A DNA stretch of 64,000 nucleotides, from contig DAISWO010000001.1 of assembly GCA_036826295.1 (NCBI GenBank), positions 18,068 to 82,067 of the forward strand, in the 5' to 3' direction. Both the position numbers and the translations under genes were made by a program. A model generated the notes under the pieces. The model was not told the origin of the DNA. It saw only the letters and a list, made by a program, of their open reading frames with translations, and did not search any database. This document shows positions 52,008 through 64,000 of this stretch, one piece after another. This DNA is from Candidatus Saccharimonadota bacterium (GTDB taxonomy: Bacteria; Patescibacteriota; Saccharimonadia; Saccharimonadales; JAGQNJ01). Within the stretch, counting starts at the first letter, position 1, and each line of letters starts with the position of its first letter.

Positions 52008-53072
52008 GTGATGATTACAAGTATTAGGCTTCAGAATTTTAGGTCGTATAAAGATAGCGCCTTTGAGTTTGAGTCTGGCACTAATATTATTGTTGGCCCA
52101 AACGCTAGCGGTAAGACCAACCTATTAGAGTCTGTTTACTATGTTTGTAGCATGGGAGCTTTTCGTTCGTCAGACCACCACAACATACAGACCGGCAAAA
52201 ACTGGGCAAGGATTGACGCCACTACTGACGATAATCAAAGACGGACCCTAAAACTAACCGAAGAGAATGGTCGAGTTAATAAAAACTTTGAGATTGATGA
52301 AGTAGTTAAAAAACGGCCAACAGCTAAAGAATCTATCCCAGTAGTATTGTTTGAGCCCAACCAACTATATGAATTAGTTACCTCCCCAGAAGAGCGCCGA
52401 AGTTTTATTGATAGTCTAGCGTGCCAAATCTATCCAGAGAATACAGTGGCGATCAGTAGTTATAAGCGGGCCTTATCACAACGTAATAGACTATTAAAAA
52501 TGGGGCGCAAGGACGCAGAGCAGTCGATTTTTGCTTGGAATATAAGGCTATCGGAGTTTGCCGAGACCATCGTTACTAGACGCCTAGAGCTTATAGAAGA
52601 GCTTAATAAAACCCTAGCTGAAAACTACACAGAGATTGCTGGCGACAAGTATCTGCTAATTGTAGGCTATCAGTCAAAAATAGCTAGCGCGTCTAACTAC
52701 GCCACTAGGTTGCTTCAGGCGCTAGAACAAAACCTAGAAAAAGATTTAGCGCGAGGCTTTACTTCTGTTGGACCACACAGAGACGACCTTTTACTAGAGC
52801 TTAATAACAATGATGTTCGTAGCTTTGCATCCAGAGGCGAGACTCGCACCGCCATACTCGCCTTAAAAAAATGCGAGACTACACTACTCGAACAAAAAAC
52901 AGGAAAAAAACCTATTTTACTATTTGATGACGTGTTTAGTGAACTGGATGGAAAAAGACGAAAACTATTAACCGGATTTTTGAGCACCAATCAAACACTT
53001 ATCACTACAACCGACGCCGACATTATCGATAAATCCTATGCCCAAAAAACCCAGCTGATCAAGTTAAAGTGA
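52008..53072 (+). CDS. recF: DNA replication and repair protein RecF
   Basis: Walker A GPNASGKTNLLE, signature-like region and Walker B LLFDDVFSELD. TGA stop. Confidence 0.9.
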   Translation: MMITSIRLQNFRSYKDSAFEFESGTNIIVGPNASGKTNLLESVYYVCSMGAFRSSDHHNIQTGKNWARIDATTDDNQRRTLKLTEENGRVNKNFEIDEVVKKRPTAKESIPVVLFEPNQLYELVTSPEERRSFIDSLACQIYPENTVAISSYKRALSQRNRLLKMGRKDAEQSIFAWNIRLSEFAETIVTRRLELIEELNKTLAENYTEIAGDKYLLIVGYQSKIASASNYATRLLQALEQNLEKDLARGFTSVGPHRDDLLLELNNNDVRSFASRGETRTAILALKKCETTLLEQKTGKKPILLFDDVFSELDGKRRKLLTGFLSTNQTLITTTDADIIDKSYAQKTQLIKLK

Positions 53073-54398
53073 GCCCTCTTGCCTCTCGATCATTACCCAT
53101 GTTTTATTCAGTTGATTAACGTCACAGACACAGGTATCTTTTAAAATACCAACAGTCTTACTTACAATATTTTTCGTTTTATTGTTATCTGCAGTCATTA
53201 CAACCGAGCTGTTCATAATACTATAGTCAAATGTGTATTGATCGTGTCTGACGGGCACCTTAGGCAGATTGTAACTTTTAACATTATTAATAATATCTTT
53301 ATCCGAATATACTACCATACGGTTGTTATTGGTTAATGATAGTAATATCAAAGGATTCTTTGAAGCAACAATTATTTTTGATACTGGATCGATTATCTTC
53401 GAACCAGAATGATCTATTTCAACAATTTGTTTCTCGCCGTTATTCAGGTCGTATATTTCAACTTTATCAGGCTTAGAAATTTTATTAAACGTAACGATAT
53501 GACCGTTATAGGTATCAGAATAGCCTTCGATAGGCGTGTAAGATTTTTCTTCACCTGTTACTAAATCCCGTATTTTTATGTCGTGGTTAGACCCCTTTTC
53601 TTCATTATGCTCTACTACGCCACCTTCGTCTCCAGAGATGGATTCATTTATTGGAGAGTATATTAATTTGTTTGTATGTTTGTCTAAAGTAACCCCAATA
53701 GCACTATTTATAATTTTTTTAATTGACGATCCATCATGCTCATAGACAGCGCCCGCATAGTCAGTAAGGTATATTCTTTCCCCGACAGAGCCAATAATTT
53801 TCCTTGCCGCTATATCATTAACAAGCGAGCGATACTTCCCTGAATCCTCCTTAATCAACATATCTACCTTTTCCCCAGACGACAATAAAAAAACAATACC
53901 TTTTTTGGTTAGAATTCCATCTATTACAGAATTATATTTGGGAGGAAACGCAGCTTTAATAGAATTGCTAGTTATTAAAAACCAAGCTTGTTTGTTGTAT
54001 CTAGGCGGTTCACTACCACTTAGGTAGTTGTTCAATAGTTGGCTGTTAGGCGGGTAATAGTAGGATCTAACTAGGAGTTTATTATCTAAACCTGAAACTT
54101 TGTCAACATTATATAGAGGAAAGTCGTCGGTGAGTAGCTTGGTATTTAAAAAATCTTTATCATTAGCAAGATTCAACACAGCACTAGAAGAGCCAGTAAA
54201 GAATCCTAATTCTTTTGAATCTTTTGAATAATCAAAGTTGTCGATTCTCGCAATGTTTGTTGCTGCAATATCACTAGAACGCAATCTATAATCATCAACG
54301 TCCTCGCTCTTCCTCAATAAAGATACCAAAATAAGCAATATACACATAAATGTTAATAGTATTGATACTAAAATTACCACTCTTTTTTTATTCATCAA
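53064..54398 (-). CDS. membrane-anchored extracellular hypothetical protein (last gene of the T4SS-like operon)
   Basis: N-terminal TM (VVILVSILLTFMCILLILVSLL), then roughly 400 aa of predicted extracellular, beta-rich sequence. Function unknown. Confidence 0.45.
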   Translation of the reverse strand: MMNKKRVVILVSILLTFMCILLILVSLLRKSEDVDDYRLRSSDIAATNIARIDNFDYSKDSKELGFFTGSSSAVLNLANDKDFLNTKLLTDDFPLYNVDKVSGLDNKLLVRSYYYPPNSQLLNNYLSGSEPPRYNKQAWFLITSNSIKAAFPPKYNSVIDGILTKKGIVFLLSSGEKVDMLIKEDSGKYRSLVNDIAARKIIGSVGERIYLTDYAGAVYEHDGSSIKKIINSAIGVTLDKHTNKLIYSPINESISGDEGGVVEHNEEKGSNHDIKIRDLVTGEEKSYTPIEGYSDTYNGHIVTFNKISKPDKVEIYDLNNGEKQIVEIDHSGSKIIDPVSKIIVASKNPLILLSLTNNNRMVVYSDKDIINNVKSYNLPKVPVRHDQYTFDYSIMNSSVVMTADNNKTKNIVSKTVGILKDTCVCDVNQLNKTWVMIERQEGSL

Positions 54399-54407
54399 AC
54401 TTCCTCC

Positions 54408-56102
54408 TTAATACCAATTAAAAGCATGCGAGTGTTCAAGAGCACGACATGGCGTTTGATATCTACCTGCAATATAGTCTAGGCCCCAGGTTATCTGGGT
54501 TCGTGGATTAGTACGCCAGTCAGGGCCTGCAGTCGCCATTTTCCCACCAGGCTTAGATTGAGGCAAACCATAAGCGTCATCCTCTTCTTCGGTTATGGTT
54601 TCGCTTCCATTAAGAGATCCGTCTCCGTTGGTGTCGTTATTGCCTTCAGCGTCATTGATTGCAAGATGATTCCAGCTAGACTCTCTGGTCCATAGCTCTA
54701 ACAAACAACCCCACTCTGACCCGGTCCAACCCCTTTCTGCAGCCATAGACTCGCCAAGTTTTTTATTTTCATCTGGCGTACCACCACTTCCACCATATTG
54801 TGGGCTCCCGCAATTATCCACGTTAGTAAACCCACCAGTTTTTACAGCCTCAATAATTTTATTTAGGTATGTGTCTCCAACATCACTTTTTCTACCTGGG
54901 CTAATTAGGTGATGTGACAATACTCCCTTTAGATCACCCACATTAGTGTCGGTCTCCATCCCATATTTTTGGATAATATACGATACTGTTTTAGCAACAG
55001 CAGCTGCCTGGACAGGGTTATTATTAATCTCTTGTTCTGCTGTTTCAACCGTCCCATCACTACCTGCGGCAATTTCTATACCAATTGTTTTGCTATTGGC
55101 GTTTGAAGCGTGAGCAGTTAGGGTTGCTAGATCATCCACTAATTGATATACCGTTCCCGATCCATCGATGTATAACTGAACCGACAGCCCCCTGCCACCA
55201 ATAATAGAAATAAAATCTTCTACACTAGTGTTCGGAGATCCGCCGGTCCAGTGCAGAACTACACCTGTTGGCTGTATGGGTGGTCCAGAGAAAGGAGCTG
55301 GCGATATCTTTTGGATAAAATCTCCTGATACTTCTCCGTTAGTTTGAGGCGCGCTCGTGTCGATGGTGGCCGTAGTACCTGTTGATCGTGTTGCTGGTGC
55401 TTCGCCAACCTCGCCAGCCAACCACTTAGATTTCTTATCGTAACCAGCATCGGTATGATGCACACCATCTTCAAGGTAAGGATACTTTTCGGGATTACTA
55501 GTGACCTCTTCCTCCCAGTTCAGTATGGTATATTCAAGGTCTTCAGACCGGCTTTCGATCAATCGGTTTACCTCGTCGTTTCCTAAAAATGAAGGGTCAA
55601 TAAACGCACCATCTTTAACATGTACATTTACCCAGTAGACTTTAGCAGTGGGCGCTTTATCCTTAATTTTTTCAATTAACTCAGGGATTTTTTGTTCAAG
55701 ATCGGTTTCAGGGTTTGTGCCTAGGGCTACTACGATCGCATCACTTTCGGCGACTGTGTCTTTATCTTCCTCGATCTTAGGTAATGAGTCTCCAATATTG
55801 AACCCATTAGTAGCTTGAATATCAGGACTACCCCAACCTTTGTCTTCTAGTTTCGAAACTAGACTGCCCTTTTCTCGCATCCCTACGGTTAACGAGTCAC
55901 CAATCATATATATATTTGCACCCAAATCTGATGCGTCTTCTTCACATTCGTTGTCTATATCAAACCTAAGGCTCCCCCCGTCGATAACTTGTTTTTGTTC
56001 CGTACTTAAAGCTATTGCGACGTTTGATGCGCCGGAAACATAATTGAAGAATAAAACCCCAAGGATTAGCAGTGTTGATATTCTCAAAAATAACCTATTC
56101 AT
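54408..56102 (-). CDS. secreted trimodular cell-wall hydrolase: SGNH/GDSL esterase + amidase_2 (N-acetylmuramoyl-L-alanine amidase/PGRP) + SLT-like lytic transglycosylase
   Basis: Signal peptide MNRLFLRISTLLILGVLFF. GDSL block IYMIGDSLTVGM and SGNH block V of the same esterase, DGVHHTDAGY. Amidase_2-like region VVLHWTGGSPN...SVQLYIDGSGTVYQLVDD...IGIEIAAG. C-terminal WGCLLELWTRESSWN...AYGLPQS matches the E-S...GLMQ-type transglycosylase motif. Start set at the ATG 2 nt after the upstream stop (TAG-TA-ATG); the track ORF begins 30 nt earlier inside the upstream gene. Confidence 0.7.
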   Translation of the reverse strand: MNRLFLRISTLLILGVLFFNYVSGASNVAIALSTEQKQVIDGGSLRFDIDNECEEDASDLGANIYMIGDSLTVGMREKGSLVSKLEDKGWGSPDIQATNGFNIGDSLPKIEEDKDTVAESDAIVVALGTNPETDLEQKIPELIEKIKDKAPTAKVYWVNVHVKDGAFIDPSFLGNDEVNRLIESRSEDLEYTILNWEEEVTSNPEKYPYLEDGVHHTDAGYDKKSKWLAGEVGEAPATRSTGTTATIDTSAPQTNGEVSGDFIQKISPAPFSGPPIQPTGVVLHWTGGSPNTSVEDFISIIGGRGLSVQLYIDGSGTVYQLVDDLATLTAHASNANSKTIGIEIAAGSDGTVETAEQEINNNPVQAAAVAKTVSYIIQKYGMETDTNVGDLKGVLSHHLISPGRKSDVGDTYLNKIIEAVKTGGFTNVDNCGSPQYGGSGGTPDENKKLGESMAAERGWTGSEWGCLLELWTRESSWNHLAINDAEGNNDTNGDGSLNGSETITEEEDDAYGLPQSKPGGKMATAGPDWRTNPRTQITWGLDYIAGRYQTPCRALEHSHAFNWY

Positions 56103-56104
56103 TA

Positions 56105-59011
56105 CTATCTCCCATTTACCGACCAGTGCCAAGGTTCGCTCGGCAGATTAAAGAACCCATAGGTTGCAGCATTTGCGGACAACCATATATAGCATGCGGT
56201 CCCACGCGATCGGCAATTATCGAAGTCAATAGCTAAACCTCTTTCATGATTAGATGTGCCGGGTATTGCAGTCGGGACCCTGCAAGATGATGGCGATGCG
56301 TTATATATGTCCGGACATCCGTTTATTATGCGTAACTGAATTTGTCTAGCGTTGCTTCTCCAGCAAGAACCAGTCAATGTCACTCCATCAGCCGCCGCCG
56401 CCGCGATCATAGCGTTAGCATTTGCGGCTATACTCTTATGACAACCCGAACTGAGCCCAGTAACCGGTTCAATATCTGCTTCGGTAACAACTCCGTCTGG
56501 AAGAGGACCATTAGCCCCTGGTGTCGAACTTGATTTGCTCTGGTCTGGTAATCCTAATTCATCGCATGCGGATTCGTCGGCGCCCTCATAGCACACGGCT
56601 GATTTTGCGGTAATTGTGTCGGAGAGGTAGAAGCGATATTTTTTTAGCTTTATTTTTTCGGTCTCGTTAATACCAACACCGGCGCATTTCTCTGGTATGT
56701 CTTTATAATTAACTGCTTCAGTGGTTTGGATTTTTCCTGTTGTGCTGATTGTGGTCTTAAAACACTTTTCGCCGTACTTTCTGTTCATTTCCTTCAAAAG
56801 TTCAAAATTATTCTTTTCCATTTCTTTGGCTATGTCGTAAGGGTTCTCAAAAGTCTCATCTCTTTGTTCGTCTAGGCTGAAGCCGTATTCTGGGAAGCCA
56901 TAGTCGTAGTCAACTGATGCAGCTTTTGTCTTGCCGCCGAAGATATTGCCAAAATTAGTGAATATATTGCTGAAGTTCTTTAGTGGTGCTTGTAGGCCAT
57001 AAGACAGAGTTGATGAGGTTGCAAAATAATTCGGGTTATTAAACACTGATGAGGCGAATAACGAGTTAGTTTCTTTAGGGTCTAAATAGCGGGCGTATAG
57101 ACTCTTGGTCTTCATGTCGTAGCGCTCTAACTCTTTGCGCTTATAGTCTAGGGCAATTTCTTCTTCAGGCTGTAGCTCTCTTCCGCCAAAACTCAGAGCA
57201 TTATCATTAGCATTTAATCGATTCCCAAAGTTAACGCAGTTACCCCACTGCGGACCATCGGCACATTGCAGTGCCGCCCCCGCCAACCAATTAACAAGCG
57301 AATCTACATAATCGGATCCTAGTACGCCCGCTCCAATAAATATAGCGTTCACTGTGGCTGAAGCTGCGGCTGCCGATGCTCCTCCAGAAATGAATGCAAC
57401 GACCCCGTCAAGGACATCGGAAACGCCTATACAGGCACTACCCACGCAAGCATTCAGATCTATCAATACATCACAAGCTGTCTGGCCTGTTGGAAGGGCA
57501 TTGATAAGGTCATTAATAACCGTAAAAAGTGGTGGATTCTCTTTACCGGGTTTAGAACTGGCTGGTAAATCTGCTGGTTTAACTCGCTGCCCCTCATTTT
57601 CTCCTTTGGTGGCAGTTCGTTCACCGATTTGATCTTGACCGAGTTCTGCCTGGATACTATCTGCGGAAAAGGCGCTAAGCTTACCTATGTCAGTATCGCC
57701 CATAAATCTAGTAAACAATGCACCCATTTCGTCTGAGGTAACGTCTTGATCACCGAACTGAACTTGAGAACCTAAGGCTAGGCCATCAAGACCAATTCTC
57801 ATTAGAGGAATAACAAGTTCCGCCTGTCGGATAGCTTCCATAGAGCCACCGATCTGATCAATGTTACAGATGAGCTCATAGAGGCCCACTGCACCAACCG
57901 TTCCCGCTACAGCACCAATTATTTTACCTTTAACTCCTGATGGTGTATCTGCATCCAGGCCATCGGGGGCGTTCCGACGAATATTATCTCTTGTATCGGC
58001 GTCTATTTGGTCTTGAGATGGGGGTGGTTTGGCTCTATCGGGGGCTGATACCCCAGTTTTTACACGCTCGTCATGATGCTGTTTTACGGATTTGGTGTAG
58101 TCAACTATTGACTCACCGGCTTCTCGATAAAAGTTTTGTAATGGGTGAAACCCCCCAGCGTAGCGCTTTTTAGACAGCCTGTGGGTAATAGCGTTTGAGA
58201 TACCATCTTCGCTTATTGCTATTCTTAAGTCGTCAGTCATAGTACGGATTCCGGTTCGACTGCCAAACCCCCTCGGCGCATCGATCTGCTTTAATCTGCC
58301 GTCTCCTGAACTACTGTAACCTTTGGCTTTTAATTCGTCGAAAGCACTTTTGCCTTTAGGCGTATCAGTATCAAAAGTAAAACTAGTCAGAACTTTATTA
58401 CTATAATTTGGGGTAATACCAAGATCTTTCAGTCTGGTGTCAACCTTTTTAGCGTATTTATTGCCAATTGCACCGAGGTTATTGTCTATACCGTTACCAC
58501 GAGCATATCGCCATAAGCGAGTTAGACGTCCGTCTTGCATATTGGCGTTATTCTCGTGGTGAAACGGCCCCATAAGACTTGCCATATGAACAAATGCTAG
58601 TGGACCACTGGCGGTCATTAATATCCCTAGGATACCCCCGATGCCTAAGATTCCTGCAACGCCACCAGCGGCTTGTTTTTTAGTAATCTTTCCACGAAAA
58701 CGCCCGCTTTTTTTGCCATTGCTAGTGTCTTTAAAGAATCCTGAATTGTTATTATTATCATCTCCGTGTGAGATTGCCTTATTGTCGAGTAATTTACTTG
58801 CTTCGTCTTTTCCGGCTCGGTAGGGAGAGCTGTCGTAGCCTAATTTTTCGCGCTTGGCTATATCTTCTGCGGCCCCGTTGTGAGCCTCACGGTCCATAGC
58901 GTCTTCTTGGTCTTTATGGATGCCCATTAATTCTCGGAGTTTATCGTCAGAGATATTATTATCGCCGGCAAGGCTTTTGTCCTCAGTTTTTTCTGGATCG
59001 TAGACTGACAT
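56105..59011 (-). CDS. large polytopic membrane protein with C-terminal M15 (VanY-like) peptidoglycan peptidase domain; possible VirB6-like T4SS channel component
   Basis: 968 aa with several Gly/Ala-rich TM segments (AGGVAGILGIGGILGILMTASGPLAF, KIIGAVAGTVGAVGLYELI, VVAFISGGASAAAASATVNAIFIGAGVLG). The C-terminus carries VanY/M15 zinc motifs (GTSNHERGLAIDFD and SEPWHW). Confidence 0.6.
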   Translation of the reverse strand: MSVYDPEKTEDKSLAGDNNISDDKLRELMGIHKDQEDAMDREAHNGAAEDIAKREKLGYDSSPYRAGKDEASKLLDNKAISHGDDNNNNSGFFKDTSNGKKSGRFRGKITKKQAAGGVAGILGIGGILGILMTASGPLAFVHMASLMGPFHHENNANMQDGRLTRLWRYARGNGIDNNLGAIGNKYAKKVDTRLKDLGITPNYSNKVLTSFTFDTDTPKGKSAFDELKAKGYSSSGDGRLKQIDAPRGFGSRTGIRTMTDDLRIAISEDGISNAITHRLSKKRYAGGFHPLQNFYREAGESIVDYTKSVKQHHDERVKTGVSAPDRAKPPPSQDQIDADTRDNIRRNAPDGLDADTPSGVKGKIIGAVAGTVGAVGLYELICNIDQIGGSMEAIRQAELVIPLMRIGLDGLALGSQVQFGDQDVTSDEMGALFTRFMGDTDIGKLSAFSADSIQAELGQDQIGERTATKGENEGQRVKPADLPASSKPGKENPPLFTVINDLINALPTGQTACDVLIDLNACVGSACIGVSDVLDGVVAFISGGASAAAASATVNAIFIGAGVLGSDYVDSLVNWLAGAALQCADGPQWGNCVNFGNRLNANDNALSFGGRELQPEEEIALDYKRKELERYDMKTKSLYARYLDPKETNSLFASSVFNNPNYFATSSTLSYGLQAPLKNFSNIFTNFGNIFGGKTKAASVDYDYGFPEYGFSLDEQRDETFENPYDIAKEMEKNNFELLKEMNRKYGEKCFKTTISTTGKIQTTEAVNYKDIPEKCAGVGINETEKIKLKKYRFYLSDTITAKSAVCYEGADESACDELGLPDQSKSSSTPGANGPLPDGVVTEADIEPVTGLSSGCHKSIAANANAMIAAAAADGVTLTGSCWRSNARQIQLRIINGCPDIYNASPSSCRVPTAIPGTSNHERGLAIDFDNCRSRGTACYIWLSANAATYGFFNLPSEPWHWSVNGR

Positions 59012-59048: not shown

Positions 59049-60977
59049 TTATATCGCAGGTGGAGTACTTATTGGACTTAAGTTGATATTGCCCTGACCG
59101 TCTTTAATAACTCCTTTGGAGTCAAGGTCTTGGATCTCTTCGGGGTTGGTGGTGATTAGGCTAGTCTCGGTATCACTGGCTGCAATCTGTATGTGCACAT
59201 GATTCTGACCGGCAAAGAACAAGCCTTGACCAATAGGAAACTGACTTAATCGCTTTGCCTCATTCTCGGTAAGCTTAAAGACGTCGGCCAGCATATCAAC
59301 TGCTGACGGAGACTGCTTTAGTAGCAGTTGCAGAGAAGCGTTGGCTACAATTGCCCGACCTAGACGTGATCCAATAAAATCTTCTACATCCTGAGTAATA
59401 GTGGTTATGCCCAAGTTATATTTTCGGGCCCGCTTAGCCAGAGAAAACATAAAGTTAGCAGAATCTTCATATCGCATTATCTGCCAAGCCTCATCAATAA
59501 TTAAGATACGTTTTTTCATGTCGGATTTGGTGATATTCCAAATATGGTTGAGCACGATATACATAGCTACAGGTCGGAGTTCGTCCTCTAGATCGCGAAC
59601 GTTAAAGACTACCATTTGGTTTTTCATCTCAATATTGGATTGCTGAGAGAATATGCCAGCAAATGTACCGCTAGTGTATTTTCGTAGGCGTTGTGCCAGC
59701 TGTGGGCCGGTGCCTCCCATGTGTAGCAGGGTATCGTACAAATCAGTAATGGTAGGCGGTATAGAATTATGGGTAAGTGGGTCTTGGGTTATTCCTGCCT
59801 TGGCATACGTTTCAATTAATGCGGCGTCTAAATCAGCCTCTTCGACTGGTGATAATGCTGGCGCTGATGTACCGCCACTAGATTGCGATGCTAGCATCTG
59901 AGCCTGCGCCCCACCCATCATCAATCTCAATAGCCCATGTAATGTTATTAGGTTGCTACGTAGTGCGTTATCGGCCTCGTCAGTATCAATGACTTTAGGC
60001 AAGTCGAACGGGTTGATTCGTGTATTAGAGTTTAAGCTTAGTCGGACATAGGCGCCAGCGACTGCTTCACACATCCTTTGGTATTCGTTCTCAGGATCAA
60101 CTATCACAATCTCTGTGCCAAACATCATAGAACGAAGTGCTTCTAGCTTAACGGCAAAAGATTTTCCGGCACCAGATTTTGCGAACACCACGGCGTTGCC
60201 GTTTTCTAGACTAAAGCGATCAAATATAACCAGTCCAGAGTTATGCATATTTATCCCATAAAGCACGCCGTCATCTTGGCTGAGGTCGGCGCTAGTGAAT
60301 GGGAAGCTGGTACTGGCAGCACCAGTGCTCATGTTACGCCTAATCTCTAGCTGATCGGTAAATTGAGGTACGGTACTAGCTAGCGCTTGCTCTTGTTGTG
60401 AAGTAGCGGGTTTTGAATAGACTAGTTGTTGGCCAAGCATAGACTCAACCTTATGTGCTATATACTCGAGCTCGTCTAGGCTATTGCCATAAATAGTAAA
60501 GTAAAAGCCAATCCTAAAAAAGCGCTCTTCGCCAACTTGGAGCTTGTCGCGAATTTCTTCAGCATCGGTAATTGCAGCTTGTTTGCCGGGGTCACGGACT
60601 CGGCCCTTTTCTTCGTCGATCTGAATTCCGGCTTCCATTTGCGATACTTTTTTACGCAGACTTTCCATAACTAGTCGGCTTTCAACAGGATAAATAAACA
60701 TTGAGATGTCGATTATCTCGTCAAGGTTGATTAGCCCACTGGTCCAGCCGGTAGTTAGTGAACGTGGATATCCAAAAACATAGTACGTGCGGGCAAAGCG
60801 ACTACCAATCTGAAAGTGAGTGCTACTCAGCTCTACCGAGCTTGGGGCGATAAAATCGCGAAGTGCAGTTACGCCCTTTCTATAAATTTCGCCGACTTCT
60901 TGCTCTTCGCGTCGGCGCTGAGCTTCAGCTAGCTCTTTAGGATCGGTAATGGCTTTTTTGCCGCTAAATAGACCCAT
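59049..60977 (-). CDS. VirB4-family type IV secretion ATPase (TraE/PrgJ/TcpF-like)
   Basis: VirB4 N-region ALRDFIAPSSVELSSTHFQIGSRFARTYYVFGYPRS, Walker A VVFAKSGAGKSFAV and Walker B ILIIDEAWQIM. About 640 aa, as in Gram-positive VirB4 homologs. Confidence 0.85.
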   Translation of the reverse strand: MGLFSGKKAITDPKELAEAQRRREEQEVGEIYRKGVTALRDFIAPSSVELSSTHFQIGSRFARTYYVFGYPRSLTTGWTSGLINLDEIIDISMFIYPVESRLVMESLRKKVSQMEAGIQIDEEKGRVRDPGKQAAITDAEEIRDKLQVGEERFFRIGFYFTIYGNSLDELEYIAHKVESMLGQQLVYSKPATSQQEQALASTVPQFTDQLEIRRNMSTGAASTSFPFTSADLSQDDGVLYGINMHNSGLVIFDRFSLENGNAVVFAKSGAGKSFAVKLEALRSMMFGTEIVIVDPENEYQRMCEAVAGAYVRLSLNSNTRINPFDLPKVIDTDEADNALRSNLITLHGLLRLMMGGAQAQMLASQSSGGTSAPALSPVEEADLDAALIETYAKAGITQDPLTHNSIPPTITDLYDTLLHMGGTGPQLAQRLRKYTSGTFAGIFSQQSNIEMKNQMVVFNVRDLEDELRPVAMYIVLNHIWNITKSDMKKRILIIDEAWQIMRYEDSANFMFSLAKRARKYNLGITTITQDVEDFIGSRLGRAIVANASLQLLLKQSPSAVDMLADVFKLTENEAKRLSQFPIGQGLFFAGQNHVHIQIAASDTETSLITTNPEEIQDLDSKGVIKDGQGNINLSPISTPPAI

Positions 60978-60979
60978 AT

Positions 60980-61840
60980 CTATAAATCCTGCTCGATACT
61001 AGGTTTTGGGGCGTGCCCCGGACCTTTTACGATTACTGGTGCGGACACATCATCAAAATTATGCAATTGCTGTCTAGTAGCGGTATCGGGGTTATAAAAG
61101 TCATAATACAGTTCGATTAATTCCTGCGTATCAAGAGGTACAGACTTTACTCCGCATTGTTCGAGACCTGCGATTACGGCTTGGATCCGGTTTCGAAGCT
61201 CATCTTTTGCTTCGGCAAGGACTTGCTCGGTAACCACCACCTGAGGTTGCTTTGATTTGTTAAGCATACTCGACAACCCGGTAAAAAAATTCTTACTCTG
61301 CGTTATGGCGCGTTTAACTGAGACATTAGAGAAGAATGGCACAACGATATAAAAATATTTGTCCATAATATTTGATTCGGTAGATAGGTCAGTAATGTAA
61401 TCGATATAATCATCCATCAATATACCGAGAAGCATGTTGTCTTCTTGGCTTCTTGTTTTTGCCAGCTTGTCTAGGTACGGACGGATATCGACTTTTTGTG
61501 ATCGGATAAAGATTTGAATATCAAAATATAGTGAGTTTAGAAATGCTTGATAACCAGCCTCCACCGATTCTTGTTCCCCGGCGCTCATTAAATCAAAGTT
61601 AATACTTTTTGCCATAACGACAGAGCGAAAAGATCCATCGTTCATGATAACAATGCCGTCACGGATCTCTGCAATCTGTAACATATTCTGTGTACTAGCT
61701 GGATTTGCCTTTGGCTTAGCCGGTTGTTGAGCTGGGGCTGGTGCGCGGGTCGCGGCTTTTGCAGGCTGAACTACGCCTTGTACTGGTGGCTGGGCTGTTT
61801 GGGTTGGTGTCTGGGGTGGTTGGTTCATATTAGGATTCAT
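60980..61840 (-). CDS. T4SS-associated protein with Pro/Gln-rich N-terminus (possibly a separately encoded VirB4 N-terminal-like domain)
   Basis: The stop TAG is followed by AT and then the VirB4 ATG (translational coupling). The region LQIAEIRDGIVIMNDGSFRSVVMAKSINFDLMSAGEQESVEAGYQAFLNSLYFDIQIF resembles the extreme N-terminus of long Gram-positive VirB4 proteins. The first roughly 50 aa are P/Q/A-rich. Confidence 0.4.
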   Translation of the reverse strand: MNPNMNQPPQTPTQTAQPPVQGVVQPAKAATRAPAPAQQPAKPKANPASTQNMLQIAEIRDGIVIMNDGSFRSVVMAKSINFDLMSAGEQESVEAGYQAFLNSLYFDIQIFIRSQKVDIRPYLDKLAKTRSQEDNMLLGILMDDYIDYITDLSTESNIMDKYFYIVVPFFSNVSVKRAITQSKNFFTGLSSMLNKSKQPQVVVTEQVLAEAKDELRNRIQAVIAGLEQCGVKSVPLDTQELIELYYDFYNPDTATRQQLHNFDDVSAPVIVKGPGHAPKPSIEQDL

Positions 61841-61986: not shown

Positions 61987-62955
61987 CTAATGTAGAGATA
62001 CGACTACCTCATCATCTGTATCACCGTTGCTAACTTCAGAGTCTTGCGTTACATCAATTTCTGAAGAAAGCTTACGCTTATTAACACCGTTAAGTATATC
62101 AGGAACTGCCGGTGGTGTCATCGGTTGTTTTGTTGTATTTTGCGAAGTGGTCTGTGTTGTCGTCTGTGGCGTTGCATATGCAGGGGTGTCTTGCCTTGCA
62201 GGGCTAGATTTCAAAATGATTCTTGGTGCCGGCGCAGATACTCTGGCTGGACTTGAGTTAGGTACTGAAGGCGTTACAAGATTAGGCGTAACGATTTGGT
62301 TGTTCTCAGCAATACTTTGCATGTTAGACAACAATTGCTGACGGCGGATTAACTCGGACTCATCAACCATGTTTGTTAGCTGGGCTGCAAGGGGATTGGA
62401 GGTTGAAGTGTTAAGCATATCAGCTGCCGGCTTAATTGCGGCTAAGGCGTCATCTTCGGGGGTTTTTTGGATCTCTAGTAACCGGTCGTTATTTTGCTGG
62501 TCCTCAAGTCGCCGGTTGCCGGGAACTACGTTTTTAACAATCCAGCCACGAGTATCCATAGTGTTGGCAAGTGTTTTGAGTCGGCTATTTACCTCTGATT
62601 TACTCAACCCATCAGAATAATGTTTTTCAATCTTTTTAGGCACAGTAACTTTTACTAGGTGTTCAATGCCCTCTTGGTCCCAAAGACGTTTTTTAGTGAA
62701 TAGAAAGAAGCGTACTTTTCCCAGTAGCCATATCTCTGATGATTGATCACGACCAAAAGGGGCGGCCAGCAGTAAAAAGAAAATTAGTGGAGGGATTAAC
62801 GGAATAGTCATAAACCATAAATTCTCCTTTATGAAAAAGAATCCTACAAAACCAATAGTTACAACTATCGACGCATAGATAAATTGACGCAGTGTAAATG
62901 GGCCTAGAAGTTTGTCTTCTGCCTCAATATCTTGGATTACTTTATACTCTGCCAT
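61987..62955 (-). CDS. PrgI-family (VirB3-like) T4SS membrane protein with long Thr/Gln/Pro-rich C-terminal extension
   Basis: N-terminus MAEYKVIQDIEAEDKLLGPFTLRQFIY followed by two TM helices matches the PrgI/VirB3 pattern (Y-x-IP-x-DI...GLTxRQ) as I recall it. Roughly 200 extra low-complexity C-terminal residues. Confidence 0.55.
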   Translation of the reverse strand: MAEYKVIQDIEAEDKLLGPFTLRQFIYASIVVTIGFVGFFFIKENLWFMTIPLIPPLIFFLLLAAPFGRDQSSEIWLLGKVRFFLFTKKRLWDQEGIEHLVKVTVPKKIEKHYSDGLSKSEVNSRLKTLANTMDTRGWIVKNVVPGNRRLEDQQNNDRLLEIQKTPEDDALAAIKPAADMLNTSTSNPLAAQLTNMVDESELIRRQQLLSNMQSIAENNQIVTPNLVTPSVPNSSPARVSAPAPRIILKSSPARQDTPAYATPQTTTQTTSQNTTKQPMTPPAVPDILNGVNKRKLSSEIDVTQDSEVSNGDTDDEVVVSLH

Positions 62956-63028: not shown

Positions 63029-64000
63029 TTAGTTATTGCTTGTGTTGTTAGAGTCGATTCTGCGCGTTCTATTCCCTTCCCAGCGGAATTGTGGGTTTAC
63101 TTCTGTAGGTGTTGGCTTTCTCTCTAGTTTTTTGACAATCCTGCGAGGTAAAGCTGCTTTTGCTTCGGCCTTCTTTCGGGCTAAGTTGGCGTCGGCGTCA
63201 AATCTAGCATCTTCACGGTGCGCCTCTTTCCAAACTCTCCGTATTTCTTTATCGGTTTTTTTTCGTACCTCTCTGTCAGCTTTTCGTTTAGCTCGTTCTT
63301 TTACTTCTCGCTCATGAAGTTCGAATTCTTTTTTTGACTCATCGGCTTTTTCTCGGTGTTTACGAGCTTTTTCTCGTGCCTTAACGCTGTCTCTGCCGTA
63401 TATTCCACCAGGTTCTTGAAGTAATTCACCGGCTTTTTTGGTCACAAATTCCTCAACCTTAACTACGCGTGTTCTATTTCTCTCTGTTGTACCGGCTTTC
63501 GCAACTTGTTGCACTACTCTTTCGCCGTGTCTGTTGGTACTCGTAACAAAGCCGCTAGACTTTGTAGCTTTGATACGAAGTTGTTTTCTTTCCATGTCTT
63601 CTCTAGTGATTGCTTTACTACGGAACTGTTCTTTGACCTCACTTAGTCTTTGGCGTTGTCGAAGCCATGGCTTGATTCCGGCCGTTTGGTTTGAGCTTTT
63701 TCCTGATTTACTTTTGAGTACTCGTTGTTCGCCAAGCTTTCTTGCTCGTGCGTGAACACGATTTTCGACAAATTCCTCAAATTTATTTTTGGCAGGGACT
63801 TGCTCGACAATCTTTTCTGTTTTTTCCCATGCACCGCCGGGCCCCCGGACAACTACCTTATCAACTACATTTGCAATTCCCTGCGCCTCTACCTTATCAA
63901 CACCAATTACTTTGGCAATTAATAGTCCGCCTAGTTGTCGGTAGAATTTTGACCTATGTTTATCTCTTTCAGATTTAGCTGTGGATTCGACGGCTATTCT
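63029..64000 (-). CDS. highly charged Lys/Arg/Glu-rich protein, 5'-truncated by window edge (longer than ORF-track entry)
   Basis: The track lists 63029-63595 from an internal Met. My translation of the reverse strand from 64000 down to 63596 is stop-free and in frame (...RIAVESTAKSERDKHRSKFYRQLGGLLIAKVIGVDKVEAQGIANVVDKVVVRGPGGAWEKTEKIVEQVPAKNKFEEFVENRVHARARKLGEQRV...EDMERKQLRI...), so the CDS runs off the window. Confidence 0.5.
   Translation of the reverse strand, partial: RIAVESTAKSERDKHRSKFYRQLGGLLIAKVIGVDKVEAQGIANVVDKVVVRGPGGAWEKTEKIVEQVPAKNKFEEFVENRVHARARKLGEQRVLKSKSGKSSNQTAGIKPWLRQRQRLSEVKEQFRSKAITREDMERKQLRIKATKSSGFVTSTNRHGERVVQQVAKAGTTERNRTRVVKVEEFVTKKAGELLQEPGGIYGRDSVKAREKARKHREKADESKKEFELHEREVKERAKRKADREVRKKTDKEIRRVWKEAHREDARFDADANLARKKAEAKAALPRRIVKKLERKPTPTEVNPQFRWEGNRTRRIDSNNTSNN

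Follow-up and report, generated by a model that had tools for sequence, protein, structure and literature searches.

We analyzed p968, an open reading frame (ORF) in a 64,000-nucleotide (nt) stretch of DNA, referred to as the window, which comes from Candidatus Saccharimonadota bacterium (assembly GCA_036826295.1, contig DAISWO010000001.1, positions 18,068–82,067 of the forward strand). The encoded protein of 968 amino acids (aa) is probably a single-pass wall-peptidase accessory of the origin-proximal chromosomal type IV secretion system (T4SS) of Saccharibacteria, and this reading builds on its domain content, its operon slot, the conserved synteny of the region and the absence of VirB6 features. 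In the predicted layout, a charged head of about 110 aa is followed by a transmembrane (TM) anchor (aa 113–141), an ectodomain (aa 142–820), a flexible linker of 36 aa and an M15 peptidase. An earlier note on this DNA had described p968 as a polytopic membrane protein in the VirB6 position of an operon, fused to a peptidase that would cut cross-links; the peptidase and the place in a T4SS operon are borne out by the analysis presented here, whereas the polytopic channel is not.

The ORF extends over positions 56105–59011 of the (−) strand, on which all features of the window described here lie and which the earlier note had not given. It is uninterrupted and closes with a stop codon at 56105–56107. 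A 100% identical protein is present in public databases under the name 'M15 family metallopeptidase [Candidatus Saccharibacteria bacterium]'. A GAGGG Shine-Dalgarno-like sequence lies 8 nt upstream of the start, the N-terminus MSVYD is kept among homologs, with M1 and Y4 invariant, and the annotated start codon appears credible. As had been noticed, p968 directly follows a VirB4 gene, from whose stop codon it is separated by a gap of 37 nt, and its own stop codon is 2 nt from the start of the next hydrolase gene (TAG-TA-ATG).

The C-terminal domain (aa 857–968; 56108–56443) was recognized as an M15/VanY-type zinc peptidase by Pfam, by PDB sequences and by fold. Pfam VanY (PF02557) matched aa 857–964 with 40 bits, above the gathering cut-off of 25, and VanY-type PDB chains were matched at 3e-7. 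Both characteristic motifs are intact, namely SNHERGLAID (S-x-H-x-x-G-x-A-x-D, aa 920–929; 56225–56254), which aligns through H922 and D929 with PGTSEHQLGLAVD of VanY chain 5HNM, and EPWH (E-x-x-H, aa 959–962; 56126–56137). By analogy with the structures of LdcB and VanY, we take H922, D929 and H962 to be the zinc ligands and E959 to be the catalytic residue; the three ligands are at least 90% conserved among 13 close homologs. In an AlphaFold2 (AF2) model, the predicted local distance difference test (pLDDT) score is 75–95 over aa 845–968, and Foldseek matched the domain to LdcB (4JID, 4MPH) and VanXYc (4OAK) with a probability of 1.00 and target-normalized TM-scores of 0.44–0.52, with E-values of only 5e-3 to 7e-2, and also to phage M15B proteins. 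As judged from its sequence and modeled fold, the tail of p968 is a complete M15 (VanY/LdcB-like) zinc peptidase of the LAS fold. Its nearest relatives VanY, LdcB and VanXYc shorten stem peptides as carboxypeptidases or dipeptidases and are not cross-link endopeptidases. The bond specificity of the tail is not readable from the sequence, and the cutting of cross-links that had been proposed for it is not implied by the family.

TM segments rich in Gly and Ala had been thought to be scattered over about 800 residues of p968. A Kyte-Doolittle (KD) scan revealed three hydrophobic stretches (aa 113–141, 364–384 and 522–566), all within the first 570 residues, and nothing hydrophobic at aa 580–850. 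Conservation of these stretches was judged on an alignment of 48 diverse family members, and insertion was scored crudely by summing values of the Hessa biological hydrophobicity scale (kcal/mol). Only the stretch at aa 113–141 (QAAGGVAGILGIGGILGILMTASGPLAFV; 58589–58675) is a family-wide TM helix, with a family-averaged KD value of 1.92, 0% charged residues and a family median Hessa sum of 1.08, like the two accepted TM helices of the neighboring PrgI. The Gly/Ala-rich helix at aa 364–384 (IIGAVAGTVGAVGLYELICNI; 57860–57922) has a KD value of 1.82 in p968 and 1.35 when averaged over the family, and its Hessa sum is 3.2 in p968, with a family median of 4.8. For the Gly/Ala/Ser-rich stretch at aa 522–566 (57314–57448; pLDDT 40–45), the family-averaged KD value is 1.2 and the Hessa sum is 3.7 in p968, with a family median of 5.3. 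The sums of these two stretches never fall below 0 in the family, in contrast to a polytopic protein from the related locus L002, whose helices score −4.2, −3.8, −0.05, 1.4 and 2.4. In many family members K, D or E interrupt the second and third stretches, as in '...GIKQFGEATSALTDAGLEAVVGMKTEDF...' for the third one, and K+R account for 12% of the aligned region of aa 360–386 across the family. The second stretch, which overlaps a 46-residue helix (aa 374–419) in the AF2 model, is probably not a TM segment, and the third is not conserved as such.

The region preceding the anchor (aa 1–112; 58676–59011; pLDDT mostly below 50) is predicted to be cytoplasmic and is K/R-rich just before the anchor, with a mean K+R of 4.8 per 15 residues before the first helix as compared to 0.7 after it, and no such flanking-charge bias was seen around the second and third stretches. 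Because of the family-wide helix at aa 113–141 and of this positive-inside charge bias, p968 most likely crosses the membrane only once, through a single signal anchor in N-in/C-out (type II) orientation.

Cys residues were counted over 160 family representatives. Before the anchor, Cys is absent from all 160, and in the outer module (aa 142–820; 56552–58588), which is conserved and mostly helical, the number of Cys residues is even in all 160 (6 in 133, 8 in 13, 10 in 11 and 12 in 3 representatives). Six near-invariant positions (382, 513, 750, 776, 807 and 816) are each occupied by Cys in 97–100% of the family. A lineage-specific pair, C583/C592, is complete in 13 representatives and completely missing in the other 147, and a further lineage-specific pair, C522/C527, is located inside the third hydrophobic stretch. 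As the Cys residues are paired, co-occurring and even in number, aa 142–820 are probably a disulfide-bonded, extracytoplasmic domain of about 680 residues. Because this pattern suggests a disulfide-bonded outer domain, the M15 domain is likewise predicted to be extracytoplasmic. Whether the M15 domain is extracellular or cytoplasmic had been put forward as a check on the original description, and hydropathy, charge bias and Cys residues all predict it to be outside. A topology with three TM segments (N-in, out, in, out) was also considered and is less likely, because the second and third stretches score poorly for insertion and are charged in relatives, and because of the distribution of Cys, with C382 and C513 nearly invariant and C522/C527 inside the third stretch. 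One-TM and three-TM topologies alike place the M15 domain outside.

In a search of 1.84 billion proteins, the profile of aa 1–822 retrieved 1,242 cluster representatives at E ≤ 0.001, of which 682 remained at a threshold of E ≤ 1e-30, and by this measure p968 is far beyond a chance ORF. Nearly all family members have 900–1,100 aa, the conserved part being N-terminal and followed by a tail of 145–220 aa. Homolog searches with two alignments gave the same 13 close proteins as a single-sequence search, and AF2 modeling with these 13 reached a pLDDT of 45. When 47 distant representatives were added (48-sequence alignment), pLDDT rose to 73.8 with a predicted TM-score of 0.67, and the resulting model shows a mostly helical ectodomain (pLDDT mostly 70–95), in which a small alpha/beta subdomain occupies about aa 180–265. 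The N-terminal part of p968 had no match in Pfam, NCBIfam or PHROGs, a profile search of all PDB sequences with it found nothing, and Foldseek against PDB and BFVD gave nothing credible outside the M15 domain. Over the same loci, identity is 21–73% for the p968 family, 76–96% for VirB4 and 61–97% for DnaA, which makes the p968 family the fastest-diverging gene of the cluster.

Fifteen Saccharibacteria loci were retrieved with the profile of the N-terminal module, and gene order was read where the DNA reaches far enough. In every one of them the order is PrgI, TrsD-like, VirB4, p968 family, variable hydrolases, recF, dnaN and dnaA, and it is also present in locus L019, in which the member of the p968 family bears an alginate-lyase tail. 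This synteny upholds the assignment of p968 to a T4SS operon, which is that of the origin-proximal chromosomal T4SS known from Patescibacteria (PMC12102498). In the window, the gene directly upstream of p968 encodes a VirB4 ATPase of the CD1110 family (59049–60977; NCBIfam NF045971, 347 bits; Pfam P-loop_TraG and AAA_10). It is preceded by the gene for a TrsD-like protein of 286 aa with similarity to the VirB4 N-terminus (60980–61840; NCBIfam TrsD/TraD, 2.6e-8, and VirB4 N-terminal region), by that for a PrgI-family (VirB3-like) protein (61987–62955; Pfam PF12666, 37.6 bits), and by an ORF for the C-terminal part of a K/R/E-rich protein, which runs off the window end without a stop codon up to base 64000 (63029–64000).

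The position after VirB4 had been interpreted as that of VirB6, and p968 as a polytopic channel subunit of the VirB6/TcpH/PrgH type. In the closest relatives, loci L001 and L002, a 600-aa protein whose first 210 residues contain 4–6 strongly hydrophobic helices is encoded beyond the K/R/E-rich gene and is preceded by pilin-like genes. This polytopic family aligns with a 1,008-aa protein encoded directly upstream of PrgI in L019 (hhalign probability 100%, E 9e-42), for which a precomputed Pfam match to PF19590 TrbL_3 exists (L019, 975–4001); fresh scans of current Pfam (E ≤ 0.01) and NCBIfam found no such match. The PF19590 TrbL_3 model may have been changed or retired between Pfam releases. 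Similarity of the 600-aa-type protein to a TrbL-match protein from Pontibacillus is weak (BLASTP 2e-4, hhalign E 0.014). In Southlakia epibionticum, structure-based annotation placed the VirB6/TrbL-like SEML1_0011 and SEML1_0013 upstream of PrgI (PMC10633639). Several modest lines, together with the literature, thus suggest that the upstream polytopic protein is the VirB6-like protein of these clusters. In relatives, the p968 family is not the sole candidate of the cluster for a polytopic channel protein, and the separate VirB6-like gene was missed earlier because it lies beyond the window end.

Gene order in better-known systems bears on the same question. The VirB4 of the window has one of its two best plasmid matches (34.9% identity) on plasmid NZ_CP062975.1 of Pontibacillus sp. 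ALD_SL1 (cluster at 351801–361354, L016; CD1110-type VirB4), where the order is pilin, TrbL, VirB3, TrsD-like, VirB4 and a 1,050-aa NlpC/P60+M23 hydrolase; its TrbL is matched by Pfam at E 2e-4 with 21.6 bits, slightly below the cut-off of 25.9 bits. On pSK41, the order is TrsC, TrsD, TrsE (VirB4), TrsF (a membrane protein) and TrsG (CHAP). In pCF10, the wall-hydrolase slot after VirB4 is reportedly occupied by prgJ-prgK. From these gene orders it follows that the slot after VirB4 is a wall-hydrolase slot and not that of VirB6, and, as read from gene order, p968 sits in the wall-hydrolase slot.

A channel subunit fused to a peptidase is therefore very improbable for p968 and largely refuted. 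Its 968 aa come near the size of extended VirB6 proteins, it does contain three hydrophobic stretches, and the order in ICEBs1 and Tn916 is said to be VirB4, VirB6-like and hydrolase, which resembles VirB4, p968 and hydrolase in the window. However, extended VirB6 proteins possess at least five hydrophobic helices (PMC12857230) and the p968 family has a single conserved one, the even-Cys signature spans aa 142–820, and the relatives carry the separate polytopic gene. No TrbL match was detected among 48 members of the p968 family at E ≤ 0.001 in Pfam, and none in NCBIfam; hhalign of the N-terminal part gave probabilities of 0.2% to TrsL/TrbL of pSK41 and 0.7% to the TrbL_3-type protein of L019, and searches of PDB by sequence or fold with p968 returned no VirB6-type chains. 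The comparison by Foldseek and profiles that the earlier note had suggested thus revealed no likeness to VirB6/TrbL in sequence, profile or fold, and what p968 shares with this group, including PrgH, ConG, TcpH and Orf15, is limited to large size, membrane association and location in a T4SS operon.

A closer resemblance is seen with the VirB1-like hydrolases of Gram-positive systems, in which an intracellular part is linked through a TM segment to hydrolase domains of varying type outside the cell, and which are needed for the T4SS (PMC12857230). PrgK (pCF10), TraG (pIP501), TrsG (pSK41/pGO1), CwlT, TcpG and Orf14 are encoded just after VirB4, as is p968, and p968 is predicted to share with VirB1-like proteins the cytoplasmic N-terminus, the single TM segment and the outer hydrolase. 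Their hydrolase domains are of the SLT/muramidase, CHAP, NlpC/P60 or LytM type, whereas that of p968 is M15, and the Cys-paired helical module of 680 aa belongs to the p968 family and is present in none of them. No similarity was detected by hhalign between the N-terminal part and the NlpC/P60+M23 protein of Pontibacillus or TrsF of pSK41. By analogy, p968 may be VirB1-like in its working without being a homolog of VirB1. The next gene, which combines Amidase_2 with a transglycosylase-like domain, is nearer to the classical VirB1 type than p968.

The published protein most similar in setting is SEML1_0007 of Ca. Southlakia epibionticum ML1, which is 1,113 aa long, has a Hedgehog/DD-peptidase fold over aa 951–1105, is encoded directly downstream of virB4, is essential in transposon sequencing (Tn-seq) like other T4SS genes, and was annotated only as hypothetical or peptidase (PMC10633639). 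Together with an adjacent lysozyme-like protein, it was proposed to fill the VirB1 role (PMC12102498). SEML1_0007 and p968 occupy the same slot in the order dnaA-dnaN-recF ... hydrolase, large protein, VirB4, TrsD-like and PrgI, and both end in a LAS-fold peptidase. They are similar in size (1,113 and 968 aa) and differ in the tail, which has about 155 aa in SEML1_0007 and is of the longer M15 type as in homologs P0003 and P0006, whereas that of p968 is a compact 112 aa.

It is hardly probable that p968 is a housekeeping LdcB/VanY-like trimmer of stem peptides that lies next to T4SS genes by coincidence. The best sequence and fold matches are indeed the carboxypeptidases LdcB, VanY and VanXYc (MEROPS M15B), which share with the C-terminal 112 aa of p968 the SxHxxGxAxD and ExxH motifs, the SxxRS substrate-binding motif and the fold, and the genes lie near the replication origin among core genes. 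Nevertheless, the position after VirB4 is kept in every related locus with VirB4, while the flanking hydrolases vary, and the spacing to the next hydrolase gene is of the translational coupling type. Furthermore, enzymes of the LdcB/VanY/VanXYc group have about 200–250 aa, are soluble or lipid-anchored, serve in wall maturation or vancomycin resistance, and lack the conserved N-terminal part of 820 aa, whereas p968 is a T4SS-linked membrane protein of 968 aa. In relatives of p968, the tail is swapped for domains other than carboxypeptidases, and the Southlakia counterpart behaves like the other T4SS genes in Tn-seq (PMC10633639).

Homologs of p968 switch tails within the Ser/Pro/Gly-rich linker (aa 821–856; 56444–56551; pLDDT below 50 for aa 824–839). 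Among the 48 sampled members, Pfam assigned tails to VanY (15), M23 (4), M14 (3), Amidase_2 (2), M74 (2) and EEP (2), and one each to alginate lyase, C39-like and GDSL; EEP also occurs in combination with M23. Local profile searches of 151 tails classified 82 as M15, 7 as M14, 6 as M23 and 1 as alginate lyase and left 55 without assignment, 36 of which contain a LAS-like H-x(3-7)-D...H-x-H motif. The M15 and M23 tails and those with a LAS-like zinc motif (82 + 6 + 36) add up to at least 124 of the 151, and LAS-type zinc peptidases predominate in the family.

Because the p968 family diverges faster than VirB4 and because rare tails are not wall peptidases, there is a hint of a host-facing role. 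p968 could be a host-directed breaching factor, whose conserved module would carry an exchangeable enzyme 'warhead' and present it, or release it by way of the T4SS, against the envelope of the host Actinobacterium, and we regard this as possible but rather unlikely. The tail might then be matched to the wall or capsule chemistry of the host, and the Gly/Ala-rich helices might insert in the host membrane in the way of tape-measure segments. Swapped cassettes (M15, M23, M14, M74-like, Amidase_2, EEP+M23, alginate lyase, GDSL and C39-like), different tail subtypes on relatives that are 50–57% identical over aa 1–822, and the rapid divergence of the family speak for such a factor, as does the fact that growth on the host requires the T4SS (PMC10633639). 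The sole PHROG match of the M15 domain falls inside a tape-measure family; phage tape-measure proteins with M15 or M23 are long and helical, with Gly/Ala-rich hydrophobic stretches and a wall peptidase, as p968 is, but there is no similarity outside the M15 domain, and p968 differs from them in its N-terminal anchor and chromosomal T4SS operon. That anchor and the cytoplasmic head argue for retention in the membrane of the producer, no cleavage site or secretion signal was identified in p968, and the hydrophobic helices are not kept hydrophobic across the family. The majority of tails are wall peptidases of an ordinary kind, such as occur in VirB1-like proteins that act on their own cell, and the latter also vary in domain type between systems (PMC12857230). 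A polymorphic system, in which the conserved anchored module would turn interchangeable enzymes that degrade the envelope toward the host cell where the two cells meet, seems to us unlikely; these enzymes would mostly be LAS zinc peptidases, but also M14, amidase, EEP, alginate lyase and esterase, with the tail tuned to the wall or capsule of the host.

If p968 is a wall-peptidase accessory of the T4SS, its anchor and ectodomain would dock it to the apparatus, where VirB4, PrgI and the VirB6-like channel protein would be its neighbors, and the tethered peptidase would act on stem peptides in the wall around the apparatus. In this activity it might cooperate with the secreted esterase/amidase/transglycosylase encoded 2 nt downstream, and the two hydrolases together would breach or reshape the wall to let the channel and its pilus through. 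The opening of the wall for the channel is the job of VirB1-type PrgK, TraG/TrsG and CwlT in Gram-positive systems. The substrate would most likely be the wall of the epibiont itself and possibly that of the host.

Several points weigh against a wall-peptidase accessory. VanY/LdcB-type carboxypeptidases by themselves open no holes in peptidoglycan, and rare tails of the family (alginate lyase, EEP and GDSL) are not wall peptidases. No homology of p968 to SLT, muramidase, CHAP, NlpC/P60, LytM, PrgK-like proteins or TrsF was detected by Pfam, NCBIfam, PHROGs or hhalign, and as the next gene encodes a canonical lysozyme/CHAP-type hydrolase, the role of p968 may be a different one. The module of 680 residues is without a recognizable relative, so that its docking role is a guess. 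The topology is a prediction derived from hydropathy scales and Cys statistics, and SEML1_0007 was likened to p968 by synteny, size and C-terminal fold class.

It is already published that Saccharibacteria have a peptidase gene after virB4 and that its positional counterpart is essential, and a VirB1-like role has been proposed. In the open-access literature searched, no description was found of the family-wide architecture, the family size or the rapid divergence. To our knowledge, no type IV system other than the Saccharibacterial T4SS has been reported as indispensable to its owner's survival. Among the essential and uncharacterized parts of this system is the gene after VirB4, and the present results recommend studying this gene as an anchored, outward-facing enzyme carrier and not as a channel subunit, as the anchor and carrier module are conserved over more than 1,000 sequence clusters and the enzymatic tail is exchangeable. 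This raises the questions of which wall the tail cuts, how tail type relates to host range, and what the binding partner of the 680-residue module is. A wall-peptidase accessory would constitute a new architectural class of VirB1-type T4SS hydrolase, useful for annotation and unsurprising, whereas a host-directed carrier would make p968 a determinant of host range and of the opening of a conduit into the host. In either case, p968 gives useful and testable access to a secretion system that is essential and still mysterious, and a fusion of channel and peptidase is not what is there.

With respect to the neighboring genes, the secreted hydrolase encoded downstream of p968 (54408–56102) is composed of a signal peptide (MNRLFLRISTLLILGVLFFNYVSGA), an SGNH/GDSL esterase domain, Amidase_2 and a C-terminal domain of the transglycosylase-like 'aggregation-promoting factor' (Apf) type. 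In the list of ORFs, its start is a TTG at 56132 that overlaps p968, and the ATG at 56102 fits better. The content of this slot varies among relatives: L019 has Phage_lysozyme2+CHAP there, and Southlakia combines two lysozyme-like domains with a cysteine protease. Further downstream, a 444-aa protein with an N-terminal membrane anchor (53064–54398) had no match in Pfam, NCBIfam or PHROGs and is recognizably conserved only in L002 (58%) and L013 (29%); other small exported proteins occupy this slot in other Saccharibacteria (PEGA/Ig-like in Southlakia).

Upstream of p968, VirB4 is formed by two adjacent ORFs that are 2 nt apart, the TrsD-like protein of 286 aa and the ATPase of 642 aa (59049–61840). 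A frameshift as the origin of this split was rejected, since the split is kept in 13 of the 13 related loci that reach the region and in the literature. The split agrees with the association of TrsD described in Patescibacteria (PMC12102498). The K/R/E-rich ORF at the window end, listed as 188 aa from an internal ATG, is really open through the window end. It is 64% identical to aa 121–419 of a 469-aa, extremely K/R/E-rich protein in L002, and it has neither a TM segment nor a family match.

The pilin-like genes mentioned above (L002, 711–2725 (+), and also L001) are two in number and encode proteins of 370 and 259 aa with signal peptides and differing N-terminal domains. The two L002 proteins have in common a C-terminal segment of about 80 aa, which is 90% identical and ends in a hydrophobic helix, and this pair of genes looks like a pilin array with variable heads and constant tails, of the type reported for Southlakia and TM7x. 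The Pontibacillus cluster adjoins flagellar genes on a Firmicutes megaplasmid that was typed as 'non-mobilizable', and it may serve as a cultivable comparator for the Patescibacterial system. Finally, locus L007 (DATIIZ010000027.1) is labeled 'Candidatus Babeliales bacterium' but contains the cluster typical of Saccharibacteria, with TrsD, an 80%-identical VirB4, a member of the p968 family, recF, dnaN and dnaA, and this contig is probably mis-binned or mislabeled.

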